A stretch of DNA of 62,758 bases, the filler included, from Stramenopiles sp. TOSAG23-6 (Eukaryota): NCBI GenBank assembly GCA_900128565.1. It is 46 parts of 46 records of this genome, joined end to end, with 100 filler letters (N's around TTAATTAATTAA, not from the genome) between each part and the next. Parts side by side here need not be neighbours in the genome. Positions count along the whole stretch, not along the records: positions 8,225 to 9,493 come from LT639347.1; 45 more parts are not named here. One strand, 5' to 3'. Made by a program: the position numbers and the translations under genes. Positions 1,454 to 42,242 of the stretch are shown in pieces (position 1 is the first letter of the stretch; every line of letters starts with the position of its first letter). The notes under the pieces were generated by a model. That model searched no databases. It saw only the letters and a program-made list of their open reading frames with translations, and had not been told where the DNA came from.

Positions 1454-1643
1454 AACTAAAAAACAAACTTGTGCGGCTAATATTCAACGTATTGTTCGTG
1501 GTATTCAAGGTCGACGTCTAGCAAAACTTCAAGTTGATATCAAATCAGAATGGCAATTTCTTGAGTTTATAGGTTTTTTGAGTAAGACTAAGGAGCAACG
1601 AAAAGAGTATGTACAAAGGAAAAGAAAAGGAAAAGAAATGTAT

Positions 1644-1676
<33 letters not shown>

Positions 1677-2489
1677 CATACTACATTTTGTACCTAACAA
1701 AATTAAATATTTTTTTTTGAAATATTTTGTATGTTTTTTATTTTTTTCAATTTTTTGTCTACATTTTTTATACTACATTTTGTACCTAAATATTAAAAAC
1801 ATAAAAAACATAAAAAACATTAAAAACATAAAAAACATAAAAAACATTAAAAACATAAAAACACTAAAAAGATTTTTTTTTTTTGAAATATTTTTTTGAA
1901 ATATATGTATGATGTCACAAAGTTAAGGGATGAGAATACAAAAACAAAGAAAAAAAGTACACATTTAAAAAATACAGCAAATGAGGTGGATAATATTATG
2001 AAGGATAGAATTTCTGTAGAAATGCCCCAAAGTGATGCTGTAGGTTCTAGAGGTAATAAAACCCTAACCCTAACAACACAACAAAAAGAAGCACATCATA
2101 AGAAAAGTTCTGCTGGTGTTGTTAATGATTTACTAGGAAGGACTCGATATGATGACCCTAACCCTAACCCTAATGATTCCAAGTCGACACATCAAAAGAA
2201 TCAAAAAAATCAAAAGAATCAAAAGAATCAAAATCTAAATAAATTATCAAACAAACAAAATGGAATTGTCAAACATGCAAACACTAACCCTAATGAGATA
2301 TCATCTGAAACACAAACACATAAACATCAATTTTCTGAATTTTACAAATCTTTGTCATCACAGGACAATAATATTTCTGATAATACTGAATTTAATCATA
2401 ATTATTTGACAGAGTGGAATAAAATTACTCTGCCTAAACGTTTAAATGTTCATCGTTCACGTCTGAGAGTTTTACATCCGCAAAGAATT
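1454..2489 (+). CDS. IQ calmodulin-binding motif protein, two internal exons (1454-1639, 1907-2489)
   Basis: AANIQRIVRGIQGRR IQ motif; the frame continues across intron 1640-1906. Confidence 0.7.
1640..1906 (+). other. GT-AT family intron
   Basis: gaaAT|GTATGT...GAAATATAT|g; contains two gtacctaa copies and a 9-bp AAAAACATW repeat. Confidence 0.75.
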
Positions 2490-8124: not shown

Positions 8125-8290
8125 NNNNNNNNNNNNNNNNNNNNNNNNNNNNNNNNNNNNNNNNNNNNTTAATTAATTAANNNNNNNNNNNNNNNNNNNN
8201 NNNNNNNNNNNNNNNNNNNNNNNNTTCGTACGAAATTTCGTACCTAACAATTTTTTTTAGATTTTTTTGAAATATTTTTCCAAAATACAT

Positions 8291-9416
8291 GCTCATCCTG
8301 AAGCTATATCGGAATTATCAATACAATACAGAATGCACAATGATATAATGTTGTTAAGTAATACTTTAACATACAAAAATAAATTGAAATGTGGGTCAAA
8401 TGAAGTTGCATCACAAATATTTAACATACCAAATATAGATAAACGCATGTATGTTTTATTTTTTTTTTTTTTCGGTAAAAAAAAAATCGAATTTTTTTTT
8501 TCGTACGAAAATTTGTACCTAACAATTTTTTTTTTTTGGTAAATTTTGAAATATTTTTCCAAAATACATTCCACCGATGATAAATAATAATAATAATCAA
8601 CAAAGAAAAAAGAATAGTCCTGATAGTATTGATTGGCTTCAATTGATTTTTGAAAAAGAACAATCTGTCGTATTCTTAGATACTGACAAAATAATACCAA
8701 GTGAAAATAATTCAATATCTAACCCTAACCCTAGTTTTTGTGCTACAAAAAATATAAAAAATATAAAAAATACAAAAAAAGTTCCACTTGAAAAACGAAC
8801 ACGAAAAAAATTTGGTGGTGGAATTATTAATGAAGTAGAAAGTTCTATCGTCCATATCATGTACGTTGATGCAAAATTAATTCAAATTTATTATTATTAT
8901 TTTTTTTTTTTAATTTTTTTCTTTCAGAATGAAATTCAAATTTATTAAAAAAAAGAAAATTCAAAAATCTCAAAAAAATCAAAATTTTTTTTTGACATTT
9001 TTGACATTTTTGACATTTTTTTTTGTTGATATATTTTTCACTTCTTAGTATCAATGCATTATATCAATGTGGAGCCAATGTACATGATATTGGCGTAATT
9101 TCACCCTATAGAGCTCAAATAAAAATATTGTACAAAATGCTACAAAATTTTATAGGTAAAGGATTAGAAGTTTCAACAGTCGATACTTATCAAGGAAGAG
9201 ATAAACAATGCATGTGAGTTTTTTTAATACGAAATTTTGTACCTAAGCAAAAAATTTTTTTTTCAAAAAATTTTTTTTTCATTAGTTTTTTTAACATTTT
9301 ATTTATTTCTTTTTGTTTTTTGAAATATTTTTTCACAATACATTATTTTATCGACTGTCAGATCAAATAATGAAAATGAGATAGGTCGCTTATTAGGAGA
9401 TTGGAGACGAGTAAAT
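8291..9416 (+). CDS. DNA2: DNA2 helicase/nuclease (SF1), exons 8291-8448, 8570-8860, 9049-9213, 9344-9416
   Basis: HPEAISELSIQYRM...LKCG, NEVE, IGVISPYRAQ, TVDTYQGRDK, STVRSN, LLGDWRRVN motifs. Confidence 0.9.
8449..8569 (+). other. GT-AT family intron
   Basis: cgcAT|GTATGT...CCAAAATACAT|t; 121 nt. Confidence 0.8.
8861..9048 (+). other. Family-register intron ending in canonical AG
   Basis: AT|GTACGT...ATATTTTTCACTTCTTAG|t; an in-frame alternative TAT end lies at 9051. Confidence 0.7.
9214..9343 (+). other. GT-AT family intron with a textbook GTGAGT donor
   Basis: tgcAT|GTGAGT...TTCACAATACAT|t; restores QGRDKQCIILSTVRSN. Confidence 0.9.
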
Positions 9417-9593: not shown

Positions 9594-10862
9594 TTGTATT
9601 TTTTGTATTTTTTGTATTTTTTGTATTTTTTGTATTTTTTGTATTTTTAGACTCTTCAAACAATATTTTATTATTGAAAAATAATTCAAAATCAAAAGTT
9701 TTTTGGTTTTCTTCGTGAAATGACGAGACAAAATCATTGCAAATTTTAACTGCAGAACAATGTAAAAGAGAAATTCTCTGCAATGGATTCATACTATTAT
9801 TCATAATATCATTATTACTATTTGTATTATTCTTACTATTTGTATTATTATTATTATTATGATTTGTATTATTATTATTATTTGAAGTATTATTATTATT
9901 ATTATTATTATGATTTGTATTATTATTACTATTTGTAGTATTATTATTATTATGATTTGTATTATCATTACTATTTGTATTATTATTATCATTTGTAACA
10001 TATTTACTATTTGTAGTATTATTATTATTATTTATAATATCTTGTTTTTTTACTAAAGAAATTTCCATTATTCCATTCTTCACTGTTATAAAACGACAAT
10101 CCCAACGCATAAAATAACAGGGATATTTTTTCAACAAAATTCCTTTTTTATATAGTGTTGATAAAGACAAATCAGCTTTATTTGATACTGAAACAGCGTT
10201 GTGGTTTTCGTGTTTTTCGTGTTTTTCGTGTTTTTCGTGTTTTTCAGCGTCCATTGATTTTGAAACAGAGGATTGTTTTTGTGCTACGACTCGATGCAAA
10301 GTGAAATCGGATATTCGTACTTCTTCCTCTTCGTTCTGTAGTATGAAAAAATATTTCAAAAAAAATTTTTTTAGTTTCAAAAAAAAAATTGTTAGGTACA
10401 AAATTTCCTACAAAAAAAATATTTCCAAATTTTTTAGTTTTTTTTCAAAAAAAAAATTGTTAGGTACAAAATTTCCTATGAAAAAAAAAAANAAAACATA
10501 CATTTTCATAGCGCACAGCGACATCTCCATCACTACAAAATTCAATAATTTCAGCGACTCGTTGTGAATCCAATTGAACATTTTCTTCATTTACATCAAA
10601 TACAAAGACAAATTGACCAAGTTTTAAGTTGTTTTTTTTTTCATTTACATTTTGATCATTATTATTTTTAGTATTATTATTACAACGAATAGTATCAATA
10701 TCATCAATTTCATCATCAATAGTATTATCAATATCATCAATATCATCAATGCTATCATCAACATCATCAATATCATCATTAATATCATCAATATCATCAA
10801 TATCAACATCATCAATATCATCAATATCATCAATACTATCATCAACATCATCAATATCATCA
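9594..10862 (-). CDS. PH-domain protein fragment with Asp/Ile- and Asn-rich low-complexity tracts; intron 10501-10336 (GT-AG)
   Basis: LYKKGILLKK...RWDCRFITV...ISLLHCSAV...FELF PH signature; frame continuous across aAT|GTATGT...CATACTACAG|aac. Confidence 0.7.
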
Positions 10863-13600
10863 NNNNNNNNNNNNNNNNNNNNNNNNNNNNNNNNNNNNNN
10901 NNNNNNTTAATTAATTAANNNNNNNNNNNNNNNNNNNNNNNNNNNNNNNNNNNNNNNNNNNNTTGTATTTTTTGTATTTTTTGTATTTTTTGTATTTTTT
11001 GTATTTTTTGTATTTTTAGACTCTTCAAACAATATTTTATTATTGAAAAATAATTCAAAATCAAAAGTTTTTTGGTTTTCTTCGTGAAATGACGAGACAA
11101 AATCATTGCAAATTTTAACTGCAGAACAATGTAAAAGAGAAATTCTCTGCAATGGATTCATACTATTATTCATAATATCATTATTACTATTTGTATTATT
11201 CTTACTATTTGTATTATTATTATTATTATGATTTGTATTATTATTATTATTTGAAGTATTATTATTATTATTATTATTATGATTTGTATTATTATTACTA
11301 TTTGTAGTATTATTATTATTATGATTTGTATTATCATTACTATTTGTATTATTATTATCATTTGTAACATATTTACTATTTGTAGTATTATTATTATTAT
11401 TTATAATATCTTGTTTTTTTACTAAAGAAATTTCCATTATTCCATTCTTCACTGTTATAAAACGACAATCCCAACGCATAAAATAACAGGGATATTTTTT
11501 CAACAAAATTCCTTTTTTATATAGTGTTGATAAAGACAAATCAGCTTTATTTGATACTGAAACAGCGTTGTGGTTTTCGTGTTTTTCGTGTTTTTCGTGT
11601 TTTTCGTGTTTTTCAGCGTCCATTGATTTTGAAACAGAGGATTGTTTTTGTGCTACGACTCGATGCAAAGTGAAATCGGATATTCGTACTTCTTCCTCTT
11701 CGTTCTGTAGTATGAAAAAATATTTCAAAAAAAATTTTTTTAGTTTCAAAAAAAAAATTGTTAGGTACAAAATTTCCTACAAAAAAAATATTTCCAAATT
11801 TTTTAGTTTTTTTTCAAAAAAAAAATTGTTAGGTACAAAATTTCCTATGAAAAAAAAAAATAAAACATACATTTTCATAGCGCACAGCGACATCTCCATC
11901 ACTACAAAATTCAATAATTTCAGCGACTCGTTGTGAATCCAATTGAACATTTTCTTCATTTACATCAAATACAAAGACAAATTGACCAAGTTTTAAGTTG
12001 TTTTTTTTTTCATTTACATTTTGATCATTATTATTTTTAGTATTATTATTACAACGAATAGTATCAATATCATCAATTTCATCATCAATAGTATTATCAA
12101 TATCATCAATATCATCAATGCTATCATCAACATCATCAATATCATCATTAATATCATCAATATCATCAATATCAACATCATCAATATCATCAATATCATC
12201 AATACTATCATCAACATCATCAATATCATCANNNNNNNNNNNNNNNNNNNNNNNNNNNNNNNNNNNNNNNNNNNNTTAATTAATTAANNNNNNNNNNNNN
12301 NNNNNNNNNNNNNNNNNNNNNNNNNNNNNNNTTGTATTTTTTGTATTTTTTGTATTTTTTGTATTTTTTGTATTTTTTGTATTTTTAGACTCTTCAAACA
12401 ATATTTTATTATTGAAAAATAATTCAAAATCAAAAGTTTTTTGGTTTTCTTCGTGAAATGACGAGACAAAATCATTGCAAATTTTAACTGCAGAACAATG
12501 TAAAAGAGAAATTCTCTGCAATGGATTCATACTATTATTCATAATATCATTATTACTATTTGTATTATTCTTACTATTTGTATTATTATTATTATTATGA
12601 TTTGTATTATTATTATTATTTGAAGTATTATTATTATTATTATTATTATGATTTGTATTATTATTACTATTTGTAGTATTATTATTATTATGATTTGTAT
12701 TATCATTACTATTTGTATTATTATTATCATTTGTAACATATTTACTATTTGTAGTATTATTATTATTATTTATAATATCTTGTTTTTTTACTAAAGAAAT
12801 TTCCATTATTCCATTCTTCACTGTTATAAAACGACAATCCCAACGCATAAAATAACAGGGATATTTTTTCAACAAAATTCCTTTTTTATATAGTGTTGAT
12901 AAAGACAAATCAGCTTTATTTGATACTGAAACAGCGTTGTGGTTTTCGTGTTTTTCGTGTTTTTCGTGTTTTTCGTGTTTTTCAGCGTCCATTGATTTTG
13001 AAACAGAGGATTGTTTTTGTGCTACGACTCGATGCAAAGTGAAATCGGATATTCGTACTTCTTCCTCTTCGTTCTGTAGTATGAAAAAATATTTCAAAAA
13101 AAATTTTTTTAGTTTCAAAAAAAAAATTGTTAGGTACAAAATTTCCTACAAAAAAAATATTTCCAAATTTTTTAGTTTTTTTTCAAAAAAAAAATTGTTA
13201 GGTACAAAATTTCCTATGAAAAAAAAAAATAAAACATACATTTTCATAGCGCACAGCGACATCTCCATCACTACAAAATTCAATAATTTCAGCGACTCGT
13301 TGTGAATCCAATTGAACATTTTCTTCATTTACATCAAATACAAAGACAAATTGACCAAGTTTTAAGTTGTTTTTTTTTTCATTTACATTTTGATCATTAT
13401 TATTTTTAGTATTATTATTACAACGAATAGTATCAATATCATCAATTTCATCATCAATAGTATTATCAATATCATCAATATCATCAATGCTATCATCAAC
13501 ATCATCAATATCATCATTAATATCATCAATATCATCAATATCAACATCATCAATATCATCAATATCATCAATACTATCATCAACATCATCAATATCATCA
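9594..13600. repeat. Three redundant copies of the same 1269-bp contig
   Basis: Copies at 9594, 10963 and 12332 look identical apart from one N, and are separated by spacers. Confidence 0.95.
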
Positions 13601-13772: not shown

Positions 13773-14561
13773 GAAAGAGGCCATCGCTCATTCAGCAAAC
13801 CTGATAAAATTCGAAATTCGTTAGGTACGAAATTAGGTACGGACCCCCCCCCCCCATCTTGAAACACATTCAAATTCTCATAATGAATTCGGAACTCTAT
13901 ATGATTGGAAACATCGTTCTGAGCAAAAAATTATAAATCAAGAAATAAATGATGATGTGTTATATATAGCATCACAGCAAAAGATTTCGTCCATAAATAA
14001 GTTTGATGATACGATCCAGTTCCCCCCAAAATTTTTATTAGCCTCAAAACAACGTCAGACTATCCTAACTAATAAAATAAAAAATAATACACGAAATTCG
14101 AAGAATAAATGGTGGTTTAGAAAAGTATTTGATGATTTTATATCAAAAGGACAGGGCAGTATTTAACAATGTAGTGTATTTTAGGTGTATGATAGATATA
14201 GGTATGATATTTAATATAAAGGTATACAATTTTGTAATTTTTCAATGTGGTTATTTTTTTTCAACGGATGTTACATGAGGGGTAAAATAGAGTAATATTT
14301 AATATTTCAAATTTAATATATCAAATTTAACATGGGTTTTATTTCAGAAATATCAAAGCAATACAGAATATTAAGATAGATGGTATATATCTTCATTATC
14401 AACAAAAATACACAGACTACTCAACTCTTCCATTACTTGTAGGTGAAACATTATTATCAACAAAAATACACAGACTACTCAACTCTTCCATTACTTGTAG
14501 ATGAAACATTATTATTTCTTACGAACGAGTACAAAAGGACTAACCCTAACCGTAACATATT

Positions 14562-20541: not shown

Positions 20542-21705
20542 TTCAGGTTCAGGTTCAGGTTCAGGTTGAATTTTAACATCTTTGAGACGATTTTCCCCAA
20601 AAGGGAGCTCTCCCCCATCAACCCGATATACAATATCTCGGTTGCCTCCGCGAAGAAGGCTTTTGTGAACGTTTTTCATTCCCGATATATACTTTTCCGC
20701 GATAATCCGAATTGGATCATACAAGGAGGTAGACCCATCGGGATTGTCCAACAGTTGAACAAAAGCAAGTAATTGCTCAGCATTCAAAAGTTTAATATTT
20801 TCAAAAACTGTGTGAGGAATCGCATACTGAAAAGTTCTGTATCTGTTACGTCCTTCATCATCTGGAACCTGATCCCTGCTGATAACATAACGATGCCTAT
20901 AATGAGTAGAACCGTGATTGTTTCCTTCAACTTGAGCGATCATTTGATCAACTTCCTTTGGGTCAACGTATCCCACAGCTTTAGGCATTTGACTAAATAA
21001 ATCAAACATTTTTCCTGCTGTTGTGCTCAATTTGGCTATCTCACTTGCCTTAGTTGGATTATTTATCATGGCGATTAACACAAAATCAGGAATTTCTCGC
21101 ATAGACTCTGGAACATATTTGAAATCCATAGATTCAAGAAGTGCGGCTTTTACTATGTCAGCATCATCTTTCAGCCTGTCAGATAAAACTCGAAACATAC
21201 AAGACTTGATTGGACTAGACATGAACTTGACTTTATCATCAAAAATATTCACATCACTGCAATTTTTTTTTAGGGATTCAAGATTTTCTACGAGACTGTC
21301 CGGAGCATAACTGCTTTTGGTTCTTTCTATCATAATAGAAATGACCTCATCGTGACATTGCAGGTTTTCTGGAAGTGTTTTATAGATGGATTTAGTGCAG
21401 TACAATGATGCAATAAGAACATCTTGATCATCCCGTAAAGCTTCCGGTATATTCTGAAAGCATTCCTCTGGCGTATAGTTGTTCAGAGCATCTCTTTTCA
21501 ATAACGCAATTACCACCTCTTTATCGTTTATCAAATCACCAACGTCTTGCCATATAAACGAAGAATAGTCAACATAACCGTCACGAGTAACTTCTGCAAT
21601 AACTTCATCTTTATTATGCCAGTCTATTGCTTTGGTTGTACCACAAAGCAACGCAATTGCGCTTAACATAATTAGAGCTTTAGAGATCATTTTCAAGTTG
21701 ATCAA
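20542..21705 (-). CDS. Secreted DUF4116-like repeat protein with a (PE)n tail, 3' truncated
   Basis: Signal peptide; repeats DKEVVIALLKRD, IPEALRDDQDVLIA, LSDRLKDDADIVKAAL, FKYVPESMR. Confidence 0.7.
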
Positions 21706-24700
21706 TTTTGATATTTACTCAGTTCCTCTTCAGCAGGTAGAACTTCTACTCACTCTTTCAAGCTTCTTTCAAGCTTCTTTCAAGCTTCTTTCAAGCTTCT
21801 TTCAAGCTNNNNNNNNNNNNNNNNNNNNNNNNNNNNNNNNNNNNNNNNNNNNTTAATTAATTAANNNNNNNNNNNNNNNNNNNNNNNNNNNNNNNNNNNN
21901 NNNNNNNNTTCAGGTTCAGGTTCAGGTTCAGGTTGAATTTTAACATCTTTGAGACGATTTTCCCCAAAAGGGAGCTCTCCCCCATCAACCCGATATACAA
22001 TATCTCGGTTGCCTCCGCGAAGAAGGCTTTTGTGAACGTTTTTCATTCCCGATATATACTTTTCCGCGATAATCCGAATTGGATCATACAAGGAGGTAGA
22101 CCCATCGGGATTGTCCAACAGTTGAACAAAAGCAAGTAATTGCTCAGCATTCAAAAGTTTAATATTTTCAAAAACTGTGTGAGGAATCGCATACTGAAAA
22201 GTTCTGTATCTGTTACGTCCTTCATCATCTGGAACCTGATCCCTGCTGATAACATAACGATGCCTATAATGAGTAGAACCGTGATTGTTTCCTTCAACTT
22301 GAGCGATCATTTGATCAACTTCCTTTGGGTCAACGTATCCCACAGCTTTAGGCATTTGACTAAATAAATCAAACATTTTTCCTGCTGTTGTGCTCAATTT
22401 GGCTATCTCACTTGCCTTAGTTGGATTATTTATCATGGCGATTAACACAAAATCAGGAATTTCTCGCATAGACTCTGGAACATATTTGAAATCCATAGAT
22501 TCAAGAAGTGCGGCTTTTACTATGTCAGCATCATCTTTCAGCCTGTCAGATAAAACTCGAAACATACAAGACTTGATTGGACTAGACATGAACTTGACTT
22601 TATCATCAAAAATATTCACATCACTGCAATTTTTTTTTAGGGATTCAAGATTTTCTACGAGACTGTCCGGAGCATAACTGCTTTTGGTTCTTTCTATCAT
22701 AATAGAAATGACCTCATCGTGACATTGCAGGTTTTCTGGAAGTGTTTTATAGATGGATTTAGTGCAGTACAATGATGCAATAAGAACATCTTGATCATCC
22801 CGTAAAGCTTCCGGTATATTCTGAAAGCATTCCTCTGGCGTATAGTTGTTCAGAGCATCTCTTTTCAATAACGCAATTACCACCTCTTTATCGTTTATCA
22901 AATCACCAACGTCTTGCCATATAAACGAAGAATAGTCAACATAACCGTCACGAGTAACTTCTGCAATAACTTCATCTTTATTATGCCAGTCTATTGCTTT
23001 GGTTGTACCACAAAGCAACGCAATTGCGCTTAACATAATTAGAGCTTTAGAGATCATTTTCAAGTTGATCAATTTTGATATTTACTCAGTTCCTCTTCAG
23101 CAGGTAGAACTTCTACTCACTCTTTCAAGCTTCTTTCAAGCTTCTTTCAAGCTTCTTTCAAGCTTCTTTCAAGCTNNNNNNNNNNNNNNNNNNNNNNNNN
23201 NNNNNNNNNNNNNNNNNNNTTAATTAATTAANNNNNNNNNNNNNNNNNNNNNNNNNNNNNNNNNNNNNNNNNNNNTTCAGGTTCAGGTTCAGGTTCAGGT
23301 TGAATTTTAACATCTTTGAGACGATTTTCCCCAAAAGGGAGCTCTCCCCCATCAACCCGATATACAATATCTCGGTTGCCTCCGCGAAGAAGGCTTTTGT
23401 GAACGTTTTTCATTCCCGATATATACTTTTCCGCGATAATCCGAATTGGATCATACAAGGAGGTAGACCCATCGGGATTGTCCAACAGTTGAACAAAAGC
23501 AAGTAATTGCTCAGCATTCAAAAGTTTAATATTTTCAAAAACTGTGTGAGGAATCGCATACTGAAAAGTTCTGTATCTGTTACGTCCTTCATCATCTGGA
23601 ACCTGATCCCTGCTGATAACATAACGATGCCTATAATGAGTAGAACCGTGATTGTTTCCTTCAACTTGAGCGATCATTTGATCAACTTCCTTTGGGTCAA
23701 CGTATCCCACAGCTTTAGGCATTTGACTAAATAAATCAAACATTTTTCCTGCTGTTGTGCTCAATTTGGCTATCTCACTTGCCTTAGTTGGATTATTTAT
23801 CATGGCGATTAACACAAAATCAGGAATTTCTCGCATAGACTCTGGAACATATTTGAAATCCATAGATTCAAGAAGTGCGGCTTTTACTATGTCAGCATCA
23901 TCTTTCAGCCTGTCAGATAAAACTCGAAACATACAAGACTTGATTGGACTAGACATGAACTTGACTTTATCATCAAAAATATTCACATCACTGCAATTTT
24001 TTTTTAGGGATTCAAGATTTTCTACGAGACTGTCCGGAGCATAACTGCTTTTGGTTCTTTCTATCATAATAGAAATGACCTCATCGTGACATTGCAGGTT
24101 TTCTGGAAGTGTTTTATAGATGGATTTAGTGCAGTACAATGATGCAATAAGAACATCTTGATCATCCCGTAAAGCTTCCGGTATATTCTGAAAGCATTCC
24201 TCTGGCGTATAGTTGTTCAGAGCATCTCTTTTCAATAACGCAATTACCACCTCTTTATCGTTTATCAAATCACCAACGTCTTGCCATATAAACGAAGAAT
24301 AGTCAACATAACCGTCACGAGTAACTTCTGCAATAACTTCATCTTTATTATGCCAGTCTATTGCTTTGGTTGTACCACAAAGCAACGCAATTGCGCTTAA
24401 CATAATTAGAGCTTTAGAGATCATTTTCAAGTTGATCAATTTTGATATTTACTCAGTTCCTCTTCAGCAGGTAGAACTTCTACTCACTCTTTCAAGCTTC
24501 TTTCAAGCTTCTTTCAAGCTTCTTTCAAGCTTCTTTCAAGCTNNNNNNNNNNNNNNNNNNNNNNNNNNNNNNNNNNNNNNNNNNNNTTAATTAATTAANN
24601 NNNNNNNNNNNNNNNNNNNNNNNNNNNNNNNNNNNNNNNNNNTTCAGGTTCAGGTTCAGGTTCAGGTTGAATTTTAACATCTTTGAGACGATTTTCCCCA

Positions 24701-27700
24701 AAAGGGAGCTCTCCCCCATCAACCCGATATACAATATCTCGGTTGCCTCCGCGAAGAAGGCTTTTGTGAACGTTTTTCATTCCCGATATATACTTTTCCG
24801 CGATAATCCGAATTGGATCATACAAGGAGGTAGACCCATCGGGATTGTCCAACAGTTGAACAAAAGCAAGTAATTGCTCAGCATTCAAAAGTTTAATATT
24901 TTCAAAAACTGTGTGAGGAATCGCATACTGAAAAGTTCTGTATCTGTTACGTCCTTCATCATCTGGAACCTGATCCCTGCTGATAACATAACGATGCCTA
25001 TAATGAGTAGAACCGTGATTGTTTCCTTCAACTTGAGCGATCATTTGATCAACTTCCTTTGGGTCAACGTATCCCACAGCTTTAGGCATTTGACTAAATA
25101 AATCAAACATTTTTCCTGCTGTTGTGCTCAATTTGGCTATCTCACTTGCCTTAGTTGGATTATTTATCATGGCGATTAACACAAAATCAGGAATTTCTCG
25201 CATAGACTCTGGAACATATTTGAAATCCATAGATTCAAGAAGTGCGGCTTTTACTATGTCAGCATCATCTTTCAGCCTGTCAGATAAAACTCGAAACATA
25301 CAAGACTTGATTGGACTAGACATGAACTTGACTTTATCATCAAAAATATTCACATCACTGCAATTTTTTTTTAGGGATTCAAGATTTTCTACGAGACTGT
25401 CCGGAGCATAACTGCTTTTGGTTCTTTCTATCATAATAGAAATGACCTCATCGTGACATTGCAGGTTTTCTGGAAGTGTTTTATAGATGGATTTAGTGCA
25501 GTACAATGATGCAATAAGAACATCTTGATCATCCCGTAAAGCTTCCGGTATATTCTGAAAGCATTCCTCTGGCGTATAGTTGTTCAGAGCATCTCTTTTC
25601 AATAACGCAATTACCACCTCTTTATCGTTTATCAAATCACCAACGTCTTGCCATATAAACGAAGAATAGTCAACATAACCGTCACGAGTAACTTCTGCAA
25701 TAACTTCATCTTTATTATGCCAGTCTATTGCTTTGGTTGTACCACAAAGCAACGCAATTGCGCTTAACATAATTAGAGCTTTAGAGATCATTTTCAAGTT
25801 GATCAATTTTGATATTTACTCAGTTCCTCTTCAGCAGGTAGAACTTCTACTCACTCTTTCAAGCTTCTTTCAAGCTTCTTTCAAGCTTCTTTCAAGCTTC
25901 TTTCAAGCTNNNNNNNNNNNNNNNNNNNNNNNNNNNNNNNNNNNNNNNNNNNNTTAATTAATTAANNNNNNNNNNNNNNNNNNNNNNNNNNNNNNNNNNN
26001 NNNNNNNNNTTCAGGTTCAGGTTCAGGTTCAGGTTGAATTTTAACATCTTTGAGACGATTTTCCCCAAAAGGGAGCTCTCCCCCATCAACCCGATATACA
26101 ATATCTCGGTTGCCTCCGCGAAGAAGGCTTTTGTGAACGTTTTTCATTCCCGATATATACTTTTCCGCGATAATCCGAATTGGATCATACAAGGAGGTAG
26201 ACCCATCGGGATTGTCCAACAGTTGAACAAAAGCAAGTAATTGCTCAGCATTCAAAAGTTTAATATTTTCAAAAACTGTGTGAGGAATCGCATACTGAAA
26301 AGTTCTGTATCTGTTACGTCCTTCATCATCTGGAACCTGATCCCTGCTGATAACATAACGATGCCTATAATGAGTAGAACCGTGATTGTTTCCTTCAACT
26401 TGAGCGATCATTTGATCAACTTCCTTTGGGTCAACGTATCCCACAGCTTTAGGCATTTGACTAAATAAATCAAACATTTTTCCTGCTGTTGTGCTCAATT
26501 TGGCTATCTCACTTGCCTTAGTTGGATTATTTATCATGGCGATTAACACAAAATCAGGAATTTCTCGCATAGACTCTGGAACATATTTGAAATCCATAGA
26601 TTCAAGAAGTGCGGCTTTTACTATGTCAGCATCATCTTTCAGCCTGTCAGATAAAACTCGAAACATACAAGACTTGATTGGACTAGACATGAACTTGACT
26701 TTATCATCAAAAATATTCACATCACTGCAATTTTTTTTTAGGGATTCAAGATTTTCTACGAGACTGTCCGGAGCATAACTGCTTTTGGTTCTTTCTATCA
26801 TAATAGAAATGACCTCATCGTGACATTGCAGGTTTTCTGGAAGTGTTTTATAGATGGATTTAGTGCAGTACAATGATGCAATAAGAACATCTTGATCATC
26901 CCGTAAAGCTTCCGGTATATTCTGAAAGCATTCCTCTGGCGTATAGTTGTTCAGAGCATCTCTTTTCAATAACGCAATTACCACCTCTTTATCGTTTATC
27001 AAATCACCAACGTCTTGCCATATAAACGAAGAATAGTCAACATAACCGTCACGAGTAACTTCTGCAATAACTTCATCTTTATTATGCCAGTCTATTGCTT
27101 TGGTTGTACCACAAAGCAACGCAATTGCGCTTAACATAATTAGAGCTTTAGAGATCATTTTCAAGTTGATCAATTTTGATATTTACTCAGTTCCTCTTCA
27201 GCAGGTAGAACTTCTACTCACTCTTTCAAGCTTCTTTCAAGCTTCTTTCAAGCTTCTTTCAAGCTTCTTTCAAGCTNNNNNNNNNNNNNNNNNNNNNNNN
27301 NNNNNNNNNNNNNNNNNNNNTTAATTAATTAANNNNNNNNNNNNNNNNNNNNNNNNNNNNNNNNNNNNNNNNNNNNTTCAGGTTCAGGTTCAGGTTCAGG
27401 TTGAATTTTAACATCTTTGAGACGATTTTCCCCAAAAGGGAGCTCTCCCCCATCAACCCGATATACAATATCTCGGTTGCCTCCGCGAAGAAGGCTTTTG
27501 TGAACGTTTTTCATTCCCGATATATACTTTTCCGCGATAATCCGAATTGGATCATACAAGGAGGTAGACCCATCGGGATTGTCCAACAGTTGAACAAAAG
27601 CAAGTAATTGCTCAGCATTCAAAAGTTTAATATTTTCAAAAACTGTGTGAGGAATCGCATACTGAAAAGTTCTGTATCTGTTACGTCCTTCATCATCTGG

Positions 27701-30700
27701 AACCTGATCCCTGCTGATAACATAACGATGCCTATAATGAGTAGAACCGTGATTGTTTCCTTCAACTTGAGCGATCATTTGATCAACTTCCTTTGGGTCA
27801 ACGTATCCCACAGCTTTAGGCATTTGACTAAATAAATCAAACATTTTTCCTGCTGTTGTGCTCAATTTGGCTATCTCACTTGCCTTAGTTGGATTATTTA
27901 TCATGGCGATTAACACAAAATCAGGAATTTCTCGCATAGACTCTGGAACATATTTGAAATCCATAGATTCAAGAAGTGCGGCTTTTACTATGTCAGCATC
28001 ATCTTTCAGCCTGTCAGATAAAACTCGAAACATACAAGACTTGATTGGACTAGACATGAACTTGACTTTATCATCAAAAATATTCACATCACTGCAATTT
28101 TTTTTTAGGGATTCAAGATTTTCTACGAGACTGTCCGGAGCATAACTGCTTTTGGTTCTTTCTATCATAATAGAAATGACCTCATCGTGACATTGCAGGT
28201 TTTCTGGAAGTGTTTTATAGATGGATTTAGTGCAGTACAATGATGCAATAAGAACATCTTGATCATCCCGTAAAGCTTCCGGTATATTCTGAAAGCATTC
28301 CTCTGGCGTATAGTTGTTCAGAGCATCTCTTTTCAATAACGCAATTACCACCTCTTTATCGTTTATCAAATCACCAACGTCTTGCCATATAAACGAAGAA
28401 TAGTCAACATAACCGTCACGAGTAACTTCTGCAATAACTTCATCTTTATTATGCCAGTCTATTGCTTTGGTTGTACCACAAAGCAACGCAATTGCGCTTA
28501 ACATAATTAGAGCTTTAGAGATCATTTTCAAGTTGATCAATTTTGATATTTACTCAGTTCCTCTTCAGCAGGTAGAACTTCTACTCACTCTTTCAAGCTT
28601 CTTTCAAGCTTCTTTCAAGCTTCTTTCAAGCTTCTTTCAAGCTNNNNNNNNNNNNNNNNNNNNNNNNNNNNNNNNNNNNNNNNNNNNTTAATTAATTAAN
28701 NNNNNNNNNNNNNNNNNNNNNNNNNNNNNNNNNNNNNNNNNNNTTCAGGTTCAGGTTCAGGTTCAGGTTGAATTTTAACATCTTTGAGACGATTTTCCCC
28801 AAAAGGGAGCTCTCCCCCATCAACCCGATATACAATATCTCGGTTGCCTCCGCGAAGAAGGCTTTTGTGAACGTTTTTCATTCCCGATATATACTTTTCC
28901 GCGATAATCCGAATTGGATCATACAAGGAGGTAGACCCATCGGGATTGTCCAACAGTTGAACAAAAGCAAGTAATTGCTCAGCATTCAAAAGTTTAATAT
29001 TTTCAAAAACTGTGTGAGGAATCGCATACTGAAAAGTTCTGTATCTGTTACGTCCTTCATCATCTGGAACCTGATCCCTGCTGATAACATAACGATGCCT
29101 ATAATGAGTAGAACCGTGATTGTTTCCTTCAACTTGAGCGATCATTTGATCAACTTCCTTTGGGTCAACGTATCCCACAGCTTTAGGCATTTGACTAAAT
29201 AAATCAAACATTTTTCCTGCTGTTGTGCTCAATTTGGCTATCTCACTTGCCTTAGTTGGATTATTTATCATGGCGATTAACACAAAATCAGGAATTTCTC
29301 GCATAGACTCTGGAACATATTTGAAATCCATAGATTCAAGAAGTGCGGCTTTTACTATGTCAGCATCATCTTTCAGCCTGTCAGATAAAACTCGAAACAT
29401 ACAAGACTTGATTGGACTAGACATGAACTTGACTTTATCATCAAAAATATTCACATCACTGCAATTTTTTTTTAGGGATTCAAGATTTTCTACGAGACTG
29501 TCCGGAGCATAACTGCTTTTGGTTCTTTCTATCATAATAGAAATGACCTCATCGTGACATTGCAGGTTTTCTGGAAGTGTTTTATAGATGGATTTAGTGC
29601 AGTACAATGATGCAATAAGAACATCTTGATCATCCCGTAAAGCTTCCGGTATATTCTGAAAGCATTCCTCTGGCGTATAGTTGTTCAGAGCATCTCTTTT
29701 CAATAACGCAATTACCACCTCTTTATCGTTTATCAAATCACCAACGTCTTGCCATATAAACGAAGAATAGTCAACATAACCGTCACGAGTAACTTCTGCA
29801 ATAACTTCATCTTTATTATGCCAGTCTATTGCTTTGGTTGTACCACAAAGCAACGCAATTGCGCTTAACATAATTAGAGCTTTAGAGATCATTTTCAAGT
29901 TGATCAATTTTGATATTTACTCAGTTCCTCTTCAGCAGGTAGAACTTCTACTCACTCTTTCAAGCTTCTTTCAAGCTTCTTTCAAGCTTCTTTCAAGCTT
30001 CTTTCAAGCTNNNNNNNNNNNNNNNNNNNNNNNNNNNNNNNNNNNNNNNNNNNNTTAATTAATTAANNNNNNNNNNNNNNNNNNNNNNNNNNNNNNNNNN
30101 NNNNNNNNNNTTCAGGTTCAGGTTCAGGTTCAGGTTGAATTTTAACATCTTTGAGACGATTTTCCCCAAAAGGGAGCTCTCCCCCATCAACCCGATATAC
30201 AATATCTCGGTTGCCTCCGCGAAGAAGGCTTTTGTGAACGTTTTTCATTCCCGATATATACTTTTCCGCGATAATCCGAATTGGATCATACAAGGAGGTA
30301 GACCCATCGGGATTGTCCAACAGTTGAACAAAAGCAAGTAATTGCTCAGCATTCAAAAGTTTAATATTTTCAAAAACTGTGTGAGGAATCGCATACTGAA
30401 AAGTTCTGTATCTGTTACGTCCTTCATCATCTGGAACCTGATCCCTGCTGATAACATAACGATGCCTATAATGAGTAGAACCGTGATTGTTTCCTTCAAC
30501 TTGAGCGATCATTTGATCAACTTCCTTTGGGTCAACGTATCCCACAGCTTTAGGCATTTGACTAAATAAATCAAACATTTTTCCTGCTGTTGTGCTCAAT
30601 TTGGCTATCTCACTTGCCTTAGTTGGATTATTTATCATGGCGATTAACACAAAATCAGGAATTTCTCGCATAGACTCTGGAACATATTTGAAATCCATAG

Positions 30701-33700
30701 ATTCAAGAAGTGCGGCTTTTACTATGTCAGCATCATCTTTCAGCCTGTCAGATAAAACTCGAAACATACAAGACTTGATTGGACTAGACATGAACTTGAC
30801 TTTATCATCAAAAATATTCACATCACTGCAATTTTTTTTTAGGGATTCAAGATTTTCTACGAGACTGTCCGGAGCATAACTGCTTTTGGTTCTTTCTATC
30901 ATAATAGAAATGACCTCATCGTGACATTGCAGGTTTTCTGGAAGTGTTTTATAGATGGATTTAGTGCAGTACAATGATGCAATAAGAACATCTTGATCAT
31001 CCCGTAAAGCTTCCGGTATATTCTGAAAGCATTCCTCTGGCGTATAGTTGTTCAGAGCATCTCTTTTCAATAACGCAATTACCACCTCTTTATCGTTTAT
31101 CAAATCACCAACGTCTTGCCATATAAACGAAGAATAGTCAACATAACCGTCACGAGTAACTTCTGCAATAACTTCATCTTTATTATGCCAGTCTATTGCT
31201 TTGGTTGTACCACAAAGCAACGCAATTGCGCTTAACATAATTAGAGCTTTAGAGATCATTTTCAAGTTGATCAATTTTGATATTTACTCAGTTCCTCTTC
31301 AGCAGGTAGAACTTCTACTCACTCTTTCAAGCTTCTTTCAAGCTTCTTTCAAGCTTCTTTCAAGCTTCTTTCAAGCTNNNNNNNNNNNNNNNNNNNNNNN
31401 NNNNNNNNNNNNNNNNNNNNNTTAATTAATTAANNNNNNNNNNNNNNNNNNNNNNNNNNNNNNNNNNNNNNNNNNNNTTCAGGTTCAGGTTCAGGTTCAG
31501 GTTGAATTTTAACATCTTTGAGACGATTTTCCCCAAAAGGGAGCTCTCCCCCATCAACCCGATATACAATATCTCGGTTGCCTCCGCGAAGAAGGCTTTT
31601 GTGAACGTTTTTCATTCCCGATATATACTTTTCCGCGATAATCCGAATTGGATCATACAAGGAGGTAGACCCATCGGGATTGTCCAACAGTTGAACAAAA
31701 GCAAGTAATTGCTCAGCATTCAAAAGTTTAATATTTTCAAAAACTGTGTGAGGAATCGCATACTGAAAAGTTCTGTATCTGTTACGTCCTTCATCATCTG
31801 GAACCTGATCCCTGCTGATAACATAACGATGCCTATAATGAGTAGAACCGTGATTGTTTCCTTCAACTTGAGCGATCATTTGATCAACTTCCTTTGGGTC
31901 AACGTATCCCACAGCTTTAGGCATTTGACTAAATAAATCAAACATTTTTCCTGCTGTTGTGCTCAATTTGGCTATCTCACTTGCCTTAGTTGGATTATTT
32001 ATCATGGCGATTAACACAAAATCAGGAATTTCTCGCATAGACTCTGGAACATATTTGAAATCCATAGATTCAAGAAGTGCGGCTTTTACTATGTCAGCAT
32101 CATCTTTCAGCCTGTCAGATAAAACTCGAAACATACAAGACTTGATTGGACTAGACATGAACTTGACTTTATCATCAAAAATATTCACATCACTGCAATT
32201 TTTTTTTAGGGATTCAAGATTTTCTACGAGACTGTCCGGAGCATAACTGCTTTTGGTTCTTTCTATCATAATAGAAATGACCTCATCGTGACATTGCAGG
32301 TTTTCTGGAAGTGTTTTATAGATGGATTTAGTGCAGTACAATGATGCAATAAGAACATCTTGATCATCCCGTAAAGCTTCCGGTATATTCTGAAAGCATT
32401 CCTCTGGCGTATAGTTGTTCAGAGCATCTCTTTTCAATAACGCAATTACCACCTCTTTATCGTTTATCAAATCACCAACGTCTTGCCATATAAACGAAGA
32501 ATAGTCAACATAACCGTCACGAGTAACTTCTGCAATAACTTCATCTTTATTATGCCAGTCTATTGCTTTGGTTGTACCACAAAGCAACGCAATTGCGCTT
32601 AACATAATTAGAGCTTTAGAGATCATTTTCAAGTTGATCAATTTTGATATTTACTCAGTTCCTCTTCAGCAGGTAGAACTTCTACTCACTCTTTCAAGCT
32701 TCTTTCAAGCTTCTTTCAAGCTTCTTTCAAGCTTCTTTCAAGCTNNNNNNNNNNNNNNNNNNNNNNNNNNNNNNNNNNNNNNNNNNNNTTAATTAATTAA
32801 NNNNNNNNNNNNNNNNNNNNNNNNNNNNNNNNNNNNNNNNNNNNTTCAGGTTCAGGTTCAGGTTCAGGTTGAATTTTAACATCTTTGAGACGATTTTCCC
32901 CAAAAGGGAGCTCTCCCCCATCAACCCGATATACAATATCTCGGTTGCCTCCGCGAAGAAGGCTTTTGTGAACGTTTTTCATTCCCGATATATACTTTTC
33001 CGCGATAATCCGAATTGGATCATACAAGGAGGTAGACCCATCGGGATTGTCCAACAGTTGAACAAAAGCAAGTAATTGCTCAGCATTCAAAAGTTTAATA
33101 TTTTCAAAAACTGTGTGAGGAATCGCATACTGAAAAGTTCTGTATCTGTTACGTCCTTCATCATCTGGAACCTGATCCCTGCTGATAACATAACGATGCC
33201 TATAATGAGTAGAACCGTGATTGTTTCCTTCAACTTGAGCGATCATTTGATCAACTTCCTTTGGGTCAACGTATCCCACAGCTTTAGGCATTTGACTAAA
33301 TAAATCAAACATTTTTCCTGCTGTTGTGCTCAATTTGGCTATCTCACTTGCCTTAGTTGGATTATTTATCATGGCGATTAACACAAAATCAGGAATTTCT
33401 CGCATAGACTCTGGAACATATTTGAAATCCATAGATTCAAGAAGTGCGGCTTTTACTATGTCAGCATCATCTTTCAGCCTGTCAGATAAAACTCGAAACA
33501 TACAAGACTTGATTGGACTAGACATGAACTTGACTTTATCATCAAAAATATTCACATCACTGCAATTTTTTTTTAGGGATTCAAGATTTTCTACGAGACT
33601 GTCCGGAGCATAACTGCTTTTGGTTCTTTCTATCATAATAGAAATGACCTCATCGTGACATTGCAGGTTTTCTGGAAGTGTTTTATAGATGGATTTAGTG

Positions 33701-35478
33701 CAGTACAATGATGCAATAAGAACATCTTGATCATCCCGTAAAGCTTCCGGTATATTCTGAAAGCATTCCTCTGGCGTATAGTTGTTCAGAGCATCTCTTT
33801 TCAATAACGCAATTACCACCTCTTTATCGTTTATCAAATCACCAACGTCTTGCCATATAAACGAAGAATAGTCAACATAACCGTCACGAGTAACTTCTGC
33901 AATAACTTCATCTTTATTATGCCAGTCTATTGCTTTGGTTGTACCACAAAGCAACGCAATTGCGCTTAACATAATTAGAGCTTTAGAGATCATTTTCAAG
34001 TTGATCAATTTTGATATTTACTCAGTTCCTCTTCAGCAGGTAGAACTTCTACTCACTCTTTCAAGCTTCTTTCAAGCTTCTTTCAAGCTTCTTTCAAGCT
34101 TCTTTCAAGCTNNNNNNNNNNNNNNNNNNNNNNNNNNNNNNNNNNNNNNNNNNNNTTAATTAATTAANNNNNNNNNNNNNNNNNNNNNNNNNNNNNNNNN
34201 NNNNNNNNNNNTTCAGGTTCAGGTTCAGGTTCAGGTTGAATTTTAACATCTTTGAGACGATTTTCCCCAAAAGGGAGCTCTCCCCCATCAACCCGATATA
34301 CAATATCTCGGTTGCCTCCGCGAAGAAGGCTTTTGTGAACGTTTTTCATTCCCGATATATACTTTTCCGCGATAATCCGAATTGGATCATACAAGGAGGT
34401 AGACCCATCGGGATTGTCCAACAGTTGAACAAAAGCAAGTAATTGCTCAGCATTCAAAAGTTTAATATTTTCAAAAACTGTGTGAGGAATCGCATACTGA
34501 AAAGTTCTGTATCTGTTACGTCCTTCATCATCTGGAACCTGATCCCTGCTGATAACATAACGATGCCTATAATGAGTAGAACCGTGATTGTTTCCTTCAA
34601 CTTGAGCGATCATTTGATCAACTTCCTTTGGGTCAACGTATCCCACAGCTTTAGGCATTTGACTAAATAAATCAAACATTTTTCCTGCTGTTGTGCTCAA
34701 TTTGGCTATCTCACTTGCCTTAGTTGGATTATTTATCATGGCGATTAACACAAAATCAGGAATTTCTCGCATAGACTCTGGAACATATTTGAAATCCATA
34801 GATTCAAGAAGTGCGGCTTTTACTATGTCAGCATCATCTTTCAGCCTGTCAGATAAAACTCGAAACATACAAGACTTGATTGGACTAGACATGAACTTGA
34901 CTTTATCATCAAAAATATTCACATCACTGCAATTTTTTTTTAGGGATTCAAGATTTTCTACGAGACTGTCCGGAGCATAACTGCTTTTGGTTCTTTCTAT
35001 CATAATAGAAATGACCTCATCGTGACATTGCAGGTTTTCTGGAAGTGTTTTATAGATGGATTTAGTGCAGTACAATGATGCAATAAGAACATCTTGATCA
35101 TCCCGTAAAGCTTCCGGTATATTCTGAAAGCATTCCTCTGGCGTATAGTTGTTCAGAGCATCTCTTTTCAATAACGCAATTACCACCTCTTTATCGTTTA
35201 TCAAATCACCAACGTCTTGCCATATAAACGAAGAATAGTCAACATAACCGTCACGAGTAACTTCTGCAATAACTTCATCTTTATTATGCCAGTCTATTGC
35301 TTTGGTTGTACCACAAAGCAACGCAATTGCGCTTAACATAATTAGAGCTTTAGAGATCATTTTCAAGTTGATCAATTTTGATATTTACTCAGTTCCTCTT
35401 CAGCAGGTAGAACTTCTACTCACTCTTTCAAGCTTCTTTCAAGCTTCTTTCAAGCTTCTTTCAAGCTTCTTTCAAGCT
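20542..35478. repeat. Eleven redundant copies of one 1267-bp contig
   Basis: Period of 1367 including the artificial spacer; identical ORF translations; ends in (TTCAGG)n and (TTCAAGCTTCT)n microsatellites. Confidence 0.95.
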
Positions 35479-37585: not shown

Positions 37586-38171
37586 TTTTTTTTTGGTAAA
37601 AAATTTTGGTAAAAAAAAAAATTTTTTTTTTGTTTAGGTACAAAATTTCGTATAAAAAAAAAAAAAAAAAAAAAAAAAACGTACATCGTCGTAAAGACAG
37701 ATTTTGTATTTCAAATGTAGACATTTTTTCCCACCAAAGTTTTTCTCTTTTTTCGTGTTTTTTTGTAGTCAATTGTCTATTAAGAATTCGTGTTTGTTCA
37801 GTTATTTCTGGAGTAGAAAAAGAATTTCGTGTATTTTTTGTTATATGTGAAATATCTGATAAATTTGACATTCGGCTTTGAAGTCTTGAAAATTTTCTTT
37901 GTAAACCAAATTGAAATGTTTCAGTATTTTTTGTATTTTTTGTATTTTTTGAATTTTTTGATTTTTTTGTATTTTTTGTATTTTTTGTATTATTCTCAAA
38001 AGTTGTAGGGTTAGGGTTAGGGTTAGGGCTTGTGATTGTATTTGTAAGTGGTTTAATTCTATTTTTAGCATAATATTTTCGTACAATTGGTGAAATTATA
38101 CGATTTCGTGTTTGAACAAATATTTCACACAGTGTAATGATAGAAAAAGAACAAATAATTGGAAGATATGC
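36981..38171 (-). CDS. Multi-pass membrane protein; exons 38171-37685, 37467-37326, 37158-36981
   Basis: Spliced frame RR|WWIYF...SYMPVTRVIVSIFDC...LRADPRIEC|LTPRH...; introns 37684-37468 and 37325-37159 end in AT; GCATGT donor at 36980. Confidence 0.7.
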
Positions 38172-41045: not shown

Positions 41046-42242
41046 GAATGTAATATTCAATATGCTTTAGATCCTCATTCTAAAAATTATTGCATTATTG
41101 AAGTAAATCCACGATTATCTAGATCCTCAGCTCTTGCTTCAAAAGCTACGGGATATCCTCTCGCATTTGTTGCAGCAAAACTTGCATTAAATCAACCTCT
41201 GCCTGATCTTCGTAATTCAGTCACAAAAAATACGACCGCGTGTTTTGAACCTTCCTTGGATTATATTGTTACAAAAATTCCTCGATGGGATTTGAAAAAG
41301 TTTCATCAAGTTTCTCAGGAAATCGGTAGTGCAATGAAGTCTGTAGGGGAAGTCATGGCTATAGGTCGCACATTTGAAGAATCTTTCCAGAAAGAAATGA
41401 GAATGGTTGACCCTGGAAGTGTCGATGGATTTGAACCTCATGCGACAATAAAATGGTCACAAGATCAAATTGATAATGAATTGATTAAAGCAACTGATAT
41501 GAATGTTTTCGTCATACATTTTTTACCTACATTTTTTTCATAGGAAATTATGTACCTAACAGTTTGTAAACAATTTTTTTTAAACATATTTTTCCACAAT
41601 ATATGCGTCCATTTGCAATAGCTCGTAGTCTGTATAATGAAGAAATTTCGTGGGAAGAAATTCATCAACGAACAAAAATTGATCGTTGGTTTTTGTCACG
41701 TTTGCAGAGAATAGCAGACATGCACCACGATCTGAAAGATTTTGGAGGAGATATACATTCTGTGCCATACGAAACATTACGACGTGCCAAACAACTTGGT
41801 TTTTCAGACAAGCAATTAGCACAGAGAATGTCCGATGTACATTTTCATCATTTATTTCAAATTTATTTCGTTTTCATATAGAACATTTCGTATCTAACGA
41901 TTTGTTTGTTACTTTTTTTTCACAATAAATGATGTGGATGAAACAACTGTTCGATCTGTACGCAAAAATCATGGAATCATACCCGTCGTGAAACAAATTG
42001 ATACACAAGCAGCGGAGTATCCAGCAAACACAAATTACTTGTATATGACATGTATGTTTTATTTTTTTTCAATTTCGAATTTTTTTTTTATAAAAATTTT
42101 GTACCTAACGATTTTTTCATCAAAAACAAAAATATTTTTCCAAAATACATACAATGGAATCGTCGATGATGTCGATTTCAAAGATAATGGTACCATGGTG
42201 CTTGGATGTGGTGCATATCGTATTGGGTCGTCTGTTGAATTT
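41046..42242 (+). CDS. Carbamoyl-phosphate synthetase large-chain region (CAD/URA2/CPS); exons 41046-41500, 41605-41836, 41931-42051, 42151-42242
   Basis: [64 protein letters not shown]. Confidence 0.95.
41501..41604 (+). other. GA-AT family intron
   Basis: gatAT|GAATGT...CCACAATATAT|g; restores ATDMRPFAIA. Confidence 0.8.
41837..41930 (+). other. GT-AT family intron
   Basis: gAT|GTACAT...CACAATAAAT|gat; 94 nt. Confidence 0.8.
42052..42150 (+). other. GT-AT family intron (99 nt, no in-frame stop)
   Basis: acAT|GTATGT...CCAAAATACAT|ac; restores the conserved NYLYMTYNG. Confidence 0.85.

Follow-up and report, generated by a model that had tools for sequence, protein, structure and literature searches.

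Locus and genomic setting

Positions 8225–8290 of the window (i.e., the whole stretch of 62,758 nucleotides from Stramenopiles sp. TOSAG23-6 analysed here) hold part of an intron in a helicase gene, followed by an exon and by a complete intron of the same family (Table 1); the 5′ end of the first intron is lost at a contig edge (8225). Within it, GTACGAAATTTCGTAC forms a perfect 16-bp palindrome (8228–8243) that runs directly into CTAAC (8244–8248), as the original prediction had described. We refer to the 21-mer made up of the palindrome and CTAAC as the box.

The window is a run of ~1.27-kb contigs with N spacers between them, and the assembly comprises 6,236 contigs (21.1 Mb), some pieces of which are duplicated or self-inverted. 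Approximately eleven contigs at 20542–35478 are near-identical (six were compared, by their starts), as are three at 9594–13600, and the contig at 54689–55950 is self-inverted; these are probably products of amplification or assembly artefacts, which inflate copy counts. The assembly is also incomplete, which bears on every gene or snRNA reported here as not found. Short, telomere-like CCCTAA runs occur within open reading frames, where they are read as NPNP (2060–2520, 8720–8733, 38008–38027 and others). The host is likely a heterotrophic stramenopile, judging from its Prp8 sequence: the best matches have 82–84% identity (the best named full-length ones being those of oomycetes), and in a quick tree of 25 rows the protein paired with a EukProt protein, on the side of a cluster with Incisomonas marina and outside the clade of oomycetes and ochrophytes, a placement that is not firm.

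Table 1. Introns of the GT...AT family and associated features in the window (CPS: carbamoyl-phosphate synthase).
Feature	Position	Strand	Evidence or remark
Family intron, 3′ two-thirds	8225–8290	+	In DNA2/UPF1-type helicase gene; downstream exon is Pfam AAA_12
16-bp palindrome where two 12-bp tandem units (TTTCGTACGAAA and TTTYGTACCTAA) meet	8228–8243	+	
Putative U2 branch site CTAAC (branch A predicted at 8247)	8244–8248	+	Branch A kept 136/136
Internal AG, 12 nt past branch A	8259–8260	+	Sequence
Conserved 3′ tail with final ATAC; matches the GTAT start over a short inverted stretch	8269–8288	+	
AT at the intron end, the predicted 3′ splice site; also the second copy in the 2-nt target duplication	8289–8290	+	
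Exon, AAA_12 helicase domain, ends CAT	8291–8448	+	E 2.7e-9
Next complete GT...AT family intron, box 8503–8523	8449–8569	+	
CPS intron 1, GA...AT, altered 5′ arm	41501–41604	+	Gap-free vs 74%-identical homolog
CPS intron 2, GT...AT	41837–41930	+	Homolog junction
CPS intron 3, GT...AT, palindrome 5′ arm replaced by TATAAA	42052–42150	+	
Family intron with second perfect palindrome (45224–45239)	45187–45278	−	End by motif; frame support weak
Two-box intron (internal duplication), ends AG	10336–10501	−	End called on copy at 13239
Two-box intron with partial tandem duplication (GTATGT repeated internally at 1729)	1640–1906	+	

A high-copy family of introns ending in AT

To describe the family, we fetched ~0.8 Mb of the genome and scanned 890,404 bases, including the window, for introns on the basis of their two ends, a high AT content and a reading frame open for 25 codons to either side. 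The calling used neither the box nor the last two intron bases, and overlapping or duplicate loci were removed beforehand; the end matrices had been trained on 107 introns originally found via the box, which weighs against the overall explanation given below. The family has a consensus of ~100 nt, NAT|GTAYGTTT...AAATTTYGTACCTAAC...AAAATAC-AT| (bars mark the intron boundaries). Of the 146 introns called, 141 start with GT (other starts include three AT and two GC) and 128 carry the donor GTAYGT. By far the commonest end is AT (118), followed by TT (11), GT (7), AG (5), AA (3), AC (1) and CT (1). The terminal AG of a U2-type GT-AG intron is found in 5/146 introns, so that the family mostly lacks it; 31 of the 132 non-AG introns have an AG between box and end. 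By family homology, the AG at 8259–8260 would be passed over; its use, which would keep the frame (+10 residues), may still occur.

The 12-mer of the box was present with at most one mismatch in 136 of the 146 introns and with two mismatches in five, and the box was poor or absent in the remaining five (entirely absent in two), which means either that splicing does not depend absolutely on it or that these five introns are left unspliced. Two loci with both ends intact and no branch box are L046 2372–2444 (−) and the window from 60849 onward (+). A separate survey of 46 donor-like sites returned 39 GTAYGT and one GTAAGT, meaning that the GTAYGT family dominates; we consider it probable, as part of the overall explanation given below, that the box family accounts for most of the recognisable introns in the genome. 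The sole ordinary-looking candidate in that survey, AG|GTAAGT...TTTAG, lies in L051.

Identity between nearest neighbours was 0.67–0.96 (132 introns, homopolymers collapsed) and, as in introners, many similar introns were found at unrelated gene positions. Among 183 complete copies off contig ends, a sense frame is interrupted by 170; 13 interrupt no frame, and in no copy is an antisense frame the only one broken. A further 199 box-like matches off contig ends could not be scored for an end, among them both matches due to chance and copies that have diverged. The gene for Prp8 (L059 1086–7151, −) is intronless over 2,021 codons, compared with approximately one family copy per 2 kb genome-wide.

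Protein homology and reading frame predict that these introns are removed from mRNA. Cutting the three CPS introns at AT gave gap-free junctions in all three cases (with respect to a 74%-identical homolog), and the AT end of each scored best among 25 shifts; the exons of an HSP70 gene were likewise contiguous in the Pfam profile across three further introns. Gap-free protein junctions fix the intron length, though most junctions can slide (by 1–4 bases), and the GT...AT register thus rests on complementarity to U1 and U6 and on copies with unlike flanks. Of 14 RNA runs that matched the CPS contig, each by small word shares, four were compared with the different, intron-rich locus L058; they covered it too thinly, giving scraps that were largely intron repeat and contained no joint, a result that weighs neither for nor against splicing.

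The palindrome arises where two tandem units meet

Genome-wide, we found 10,576 exact matches to TTTYGTACCTAA (vs. 15 for a control), 2,935 copies of the T form (in which one G-C pair becomes G-U) followed by CTAA and 435 copies of the perfect form followed by CTAA (~4% of the TTTYGTACCTAA matches), all three counts being inflated by duplicated contigs. The T form is thus indeed the commoner of the two, and ~68% of the matches have an altered 5′ arm or loop. CpG decay as the origin of the T form was unsupported (CpG observed/expected 0.89). The window contains 54 motif matches (both strands, up to two mismatches) against a shuffle mean of 0.09, and only two perfect palindromes, at 8228 and 45224; the latter had been anticipated, whereas the copies near 6283 and 57297, also listed as perfect, are T forms on the minus strand. 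Introns with two boxes, a further feature of the original prediction, were found as described: the plus-strand one has boxes at 1689 and 1781, and the minus-strand one, present on three near-identical contigs, has them at 10468 and 10400. The box unit also occurs in tandem copies without intron ends and outside any obvious gene (13810–13852, −), and the box was absent from the viral contigs examined.

The commonest 12-mer upstream, TTTCGTACGAAA, is self-complementary (a perfect palindrome in 46/140 copies). Directly after it stands the similar TTTYGTACCTAA, so that the two form tandem 12-bp units with a palindrome spanning their join. We therefore regard the palindrome as a probable by-product of the two units, with a decaying 5′ arm; this judgement belongs to, and stands with, our overall explanation.

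The box contains a putative U2-type branch site, and a conserved hairpin is not supported

We assessed CTAAC in 136 copies anchored only on box positions 6–16 (i.e., the upstream 11 nt). Its C, T, A, A and C were kept in 130, 134, 132, 136 and 122 copies, respectively, so that the second A, the expected nucleophile of a U2 branch site, is invariant (136/136). The distance from this A to the intron end has a median of 39 nt (5–95% range 33–53; 43 nt at the 8244–8248 copy), meaning that the spacing of ~40–50 nt originally proposed was slightly high. The U2 snRNA carries the ordinary GUGUAGUA, and the branch consensus fits its GUAGUA. The identification of CTAAC as a U2-type branch consensus is thus upheld, and its conservation supports the view that it behaves as a branch site, from which we infer its use. 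Extended complementarity to U2 or U12, which the original prediction had put forward for testing, was not supported: we found no stable longer duplex of U2 with the box beyond CUAAC, and no U12 in the incomplete assembly. Since the standard U2 register pairs only with CUAAC, the invariant upstream AAATTTTGTAC needs another reader, which is most likely a protein. Selection would accordingly hold the single-stranded sequence AAATTTTGTACCTAAC, probably as a protein site plus a U2 site, a part of the same overall explanation and held with the same confidence.

The original prediction favoured a conserved RNA stem with a tolerated G-U pair, and on that view the palindrome would act as a functional hairpin, displaying the branch A or setting the place of the acceptor. 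Such a structure would agree with the predicted folds of the perfect 16-mer (−5.4 kcal/mol) and T form (−3.3), with the low predicted pairing of C17 and U18, and with the retention of five or six of the six pairs in 87 of the 140 introns (out of 146) in which the 21-mer could be placed, 58 copies being able to form all six. However, 53 of the 140 copies retain four pairs or fewer, ~38% have no stable 16-mer fold, the median in-context hairpin probability is 0.07, and all three homology-supported CPS introns have altered 5′ arms. Moreover, the two arms are unequally constrained: positions 1, 4 and 5 of the 5′ arm were kept in 54%, 67% and 65% of copies and their partners in 98%, 92% and 86%, and when only G/C cells were compared (a choice made to allow for AT drift) 266/420 were kept in the 5′ arm against 398/420 on the 3′ side. 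Nor did we find signs of compensation, with 664 paired cells observed vs. 664 after shuffling, two double changes vs. ~1.4 expected, and a covariation score of 0.105 vs. 0.115 (20 hand-picked introns). The partner G was kept in 9/17 copies with C and in 82/122 with T, which gives no indication of G-U selectivity. Given that the 3′ arm hardly varies, the shuffle test is low in power and the asymmetry between the arms is the stronger argument. A need for the hairpin in these introns is thus not supported by the sequences, and we consider a functional hairpin improbable.

The last two intron bases track the upstream exon, indicating a target duplication

Exon position −2 was identical to intron position −2 in 117/146 introns (vs. 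96.1 ± 2.8 in shuffled data; p 0.0002) and the −1 bases matched in 134/146 (vs. 126.9 ± 1.1; p 0.0002), with no excess over the shuffle at positions −3 to −6. The last two intron bases thus track the upstream exon, which indicates a 2-nt target duplication. Such exon/intron matching is the locus-specific test used in an introner survey (in its available text; PMC9860276), and the duplication here is locus-specific, as in introners. Inside the duplication, the ends are GTAT and ATAC, i.e., inverted ends of 4 bp, a mismatch and then 2 bp; C at +4 is uncompensated (A at −6 kept in 49/50), and the flanks lean towards C and G (C at −3 in 54/146, G at +1 in 69/146). A Helitron-type A|T insertion without duplication was rejected, since GT/GT and TT/TT pairs show that intron −2 follows the exon.

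A search for one transposase family (PF13359, DDE_Tnp_4) returned no autonomous partner with matching ends; the sole complete DDE_Tnp_4 element found has 28-bp ends unrelated to those of the introns. This intact-looking element (L120 502–3610, G000:C2432) is of PIF/Harbinger type, and its 28-bp ends are inverted; it has TTA flanks, a DDE_Tnp_4 frame and a convergent second frame, with a short, degenerate branch-box copy between the two. We rejected it as the driver of the family, its ends being unrelated.

A mobile origin raises the alternative that the box is a DNA-level site (e.g., a subterminal transposase-binding repeat) in which CTAAC is incidental. While this would accommodate both the target duplication and the tandem 12-bp units (in 46/140 copies the first unit is perfectly palindromic), conservation is highest where the U2 consensus lies and is maintained in copies that have diverged, replaced 5′ arms are found in multi-copy variants (e.g., ATAGT in 10/140) and the one complete DDE_Tnp_4 element found has unrelated 28-bp ends. 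We therefore think this reading unlikely, and regard a transposase-site role as a possible origin of the palindrome.

A U1 snRNA that matches the family donors

A 640-bp stretch (L001/L004 9–645, G000:C1146) carries the genes for U5, U2, U1 and U4 head to tail, all on the same strand. The only U1 candidate found (G000:C1146 349–508; 54.1 bits, below the Rfam cut-off of 69.5) begins with AAACGUACAUG, where Rfam has AUACUUACCUG. This start is complementary to CAU|GUACGUUU, including the change facing exon −1, and its complement CATGTACGTTT agrees with the most frequent base at 10 of 11 donor positions, with G-U wobble covering T at +4; the three exon positions in this comparison played no part in intron calling. 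The mean number of U1-donor pairs was 10.2/11, compared with 7.4 for the Rfam consensus (better in 143/146 introns), and the median energy was −10.0 vs. −1.9 kcal/mol. The A facing exon −1 matches T in 135/146 exons, and by a rough estimate the chance of all three U1 changes matching is 1 in 27. Genome searches returned no canonical or other U1, though a second U1 could be missing from this incomplete assembly, and a metagenome scan for the U1 of relatives (35 loci read) returned none with U2/U5 motifs or a U1-like continuation. Taken together, these sequences suggest that U1 has changed to match the family donors, i.e., that the splicing machine has adapted to a mobile element. The complementarity of the variant U1 also supports the GT register and thus the AT end.

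The remaining snRNAs point to the major spliceosome: U2, the U5 loop and the U6 ACAGAGA are all canonical, and the GT donor would pair with U1 and U6 as in U2-type introns. Searches of the incomplete assembly for U12 and U6atac found neither, and the donors (GTAYGT in 128/146) are not of U12 type. Slu7, Prp8 and a U2AF65-like gene are present, whereas SF1 and Prp18 were not found, and U2AF35 was absent both from 16 zinc-finger matches and from a search with what we take to be its motif (all in the same incomplete assembly). In the U2AF65-like protein (L159 3–1775, −; relatives at 33–42% identity), the matches of the two RNA-binding domains are both to the first RRM in the U2AF65 profile. It lacks the tryptophan of what is presumably the U2AF35-binding motif, but this is uninformative as its relatives also lack it. 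In Prp8, 43 of 1,240 near-invariant columns show deviations, compared with 1–51 in 24 homologs, which is not diagnostic; the stretch that we take to be its alpha-finger shows no deviation save one K-to-R.

Shifting the register two bases upstream would turn the family into AT...AC or U12-like introns. The junction can slide in this way when AT stands on both sides, and a fixed, extended branch box is reminiscent of U12 introns. We nevertheless regard this reading as highly improbable, given that CT/AT, GA/AT, TC/AT, GT/GT and TT/TT copies cannot be AT...AC, that U1 matches all 11 positions in the GT register, and that U12 and U6atac were not found (incomplete assembly). Equally remote is removal not by the standard spliceosome but through pairing between the two ends of the intron, a mechanism suggested for the nonconventional introns of euglenids. 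In its favour, 6 of the first 7 positions are complementary between the ends, AG is lacking and SF1, Prp18 and U2AF35 were not found (incomplete assembly); against it, C at +4 is uncompensated, the GT donor and branch A are nearly invariant, and the snRNA set is full, with Prp8, Slu7 and a U2AF65-like gene found as well.

Relation to known intron families

The comparisons in this section draw on the available portions of the sources cited. The introners of Micromonas pusilla and of Chrysochromulina-type families (PMC11282704, PMC9860276) are likewise high-copy, similar introns in unrelated genes, in which the element brings the donor, a target duplication gives the 3′ splice site and no net change is made to the mRNA. 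Their duplication is 3–4 nt long and supplies AG, whereas here it is 2 nt long and supplies AT, TT or GT, and the inverted ends here are short by comparison. In Fritillaria borealis and F. pellucida (PMC13326754), introns derived from MITEs most commonly end in AT (34% and 44%, respectively), junctions carry repeats on both sides as here, and U2-type splicing by the major spliceosome is likewise used, the U12 machinery having been lost. Yet intron ends in F. borealis are highly diverse and mostly start with AG, in contrast to 141/146 GT donors and one strict branch box here, and its adaptation consists of U2AF duplication and m6A with no divergence of the U1 5′ end, whereas here U1 is changed. 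By analogy, the mode seen here is that of an introner with an acceptor from the duplication, combined with a Fritillaria-like AT end, and not that of a GT-AG intron.

For U1, Mastigamoeba balamuthi has the same ACGUAC core and Entamoeba the same extra A before the core (bioRxiv 10.1101/2022.06.08.495308). Changes in those lineages face intron positions, while here A also replaces the C facing exon −1, and the source describes neither loss of 3′ AG nor an introner origin in its available text; it counts two independent cases of co-evolved U1 plus one mixed earlier report. In Saccharomycotina with U at +4, ACUUACC is kept in 227/227 U1 candidates (PMC10581693). The +4 and +7 changes have precedents in Mastigamoeba and Entamoeba, whereas we found no published precedent, in the text available, for the change facing exon −1. 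Among DNA transposons, ISL2EU elements (PHIS) also duplicate a 2-nt AT target but prefer A|AT|T, unlike the C/G-leaning flanks of this family (PMC4482050), and the DDE_Tnp_4 (PF13359) search found no ISL2EU-type partner with the family ends. Literature searches, whose scope took in few subscription papers, turned up no title or abstract opening on introns of the GT-AT kind, or on a U1 of this type, in a stramenopile, nor did a word search of the available text of two marine protist genome papers (PMC8163842, bioRxiv 10.64898/2026.04.17.719054); supplements of introner surveys (PMC9860276, PMC12130899) could list this GT...AT family.

A probable explanation: a transposon-derived intron family and an adapted spliceosome

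Our overall explanation, which we consider probable, is that the palindrome is the branch-site box of a high-copy, transposon-derived GT...AT intron family spliced by a U1-adapted major spliceosome. A non-autonomous element of ~95 nt with ends GTAY...ATAC would have inserted at NT sites (mostly AT), duplicating two bases; the signal of duplication is observed, and transposition as DNA would be its likely source. The element would supply the GT donor and the branch box, with the duplicated NT serving as the 3′ end, so that removal would restore the mRNA exactly (as judged from protein homology for three introns and from the frame for many). The major spliceosome would remove the intron through presumed pairing of the changed U1 5′ end with NAT|GTAYGTTT, of the canonical U6 with +4 to +6 and of the canonical U2 with CUAAC, and the 3′ cut would be set without AG, by the conserved tail 33–53 nt past the branch.

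A bolder and distinctly more doubtful extension is that the family replaced nearly all introns of the lineage and that the spliceosome was rewritten around it, with U1 reading the exon AT, the AG-reading step dropped (U2AF35, SF1 and Prp18 lost or diverged), and AAATTTTGTACCTAAC and the 3′ tail marking the branch and the 3′ cut.

The hairpin alone is thus minor, and it is the system around it that matters. It may serve as a natural experiment, at the scale of a whole genome, in how far the requirement for a 3′ AG can be loosened while the Prp8 alpha-finger region is conserved and U2, U5 and U6 are canonical, and it would tie a wave of intron gain to an altered core snRNA sequence, which is rarely seen. 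In practice, gene finders built on the standard GT-AG rule would get thousands of introns wrong in marine genomes of this kind.
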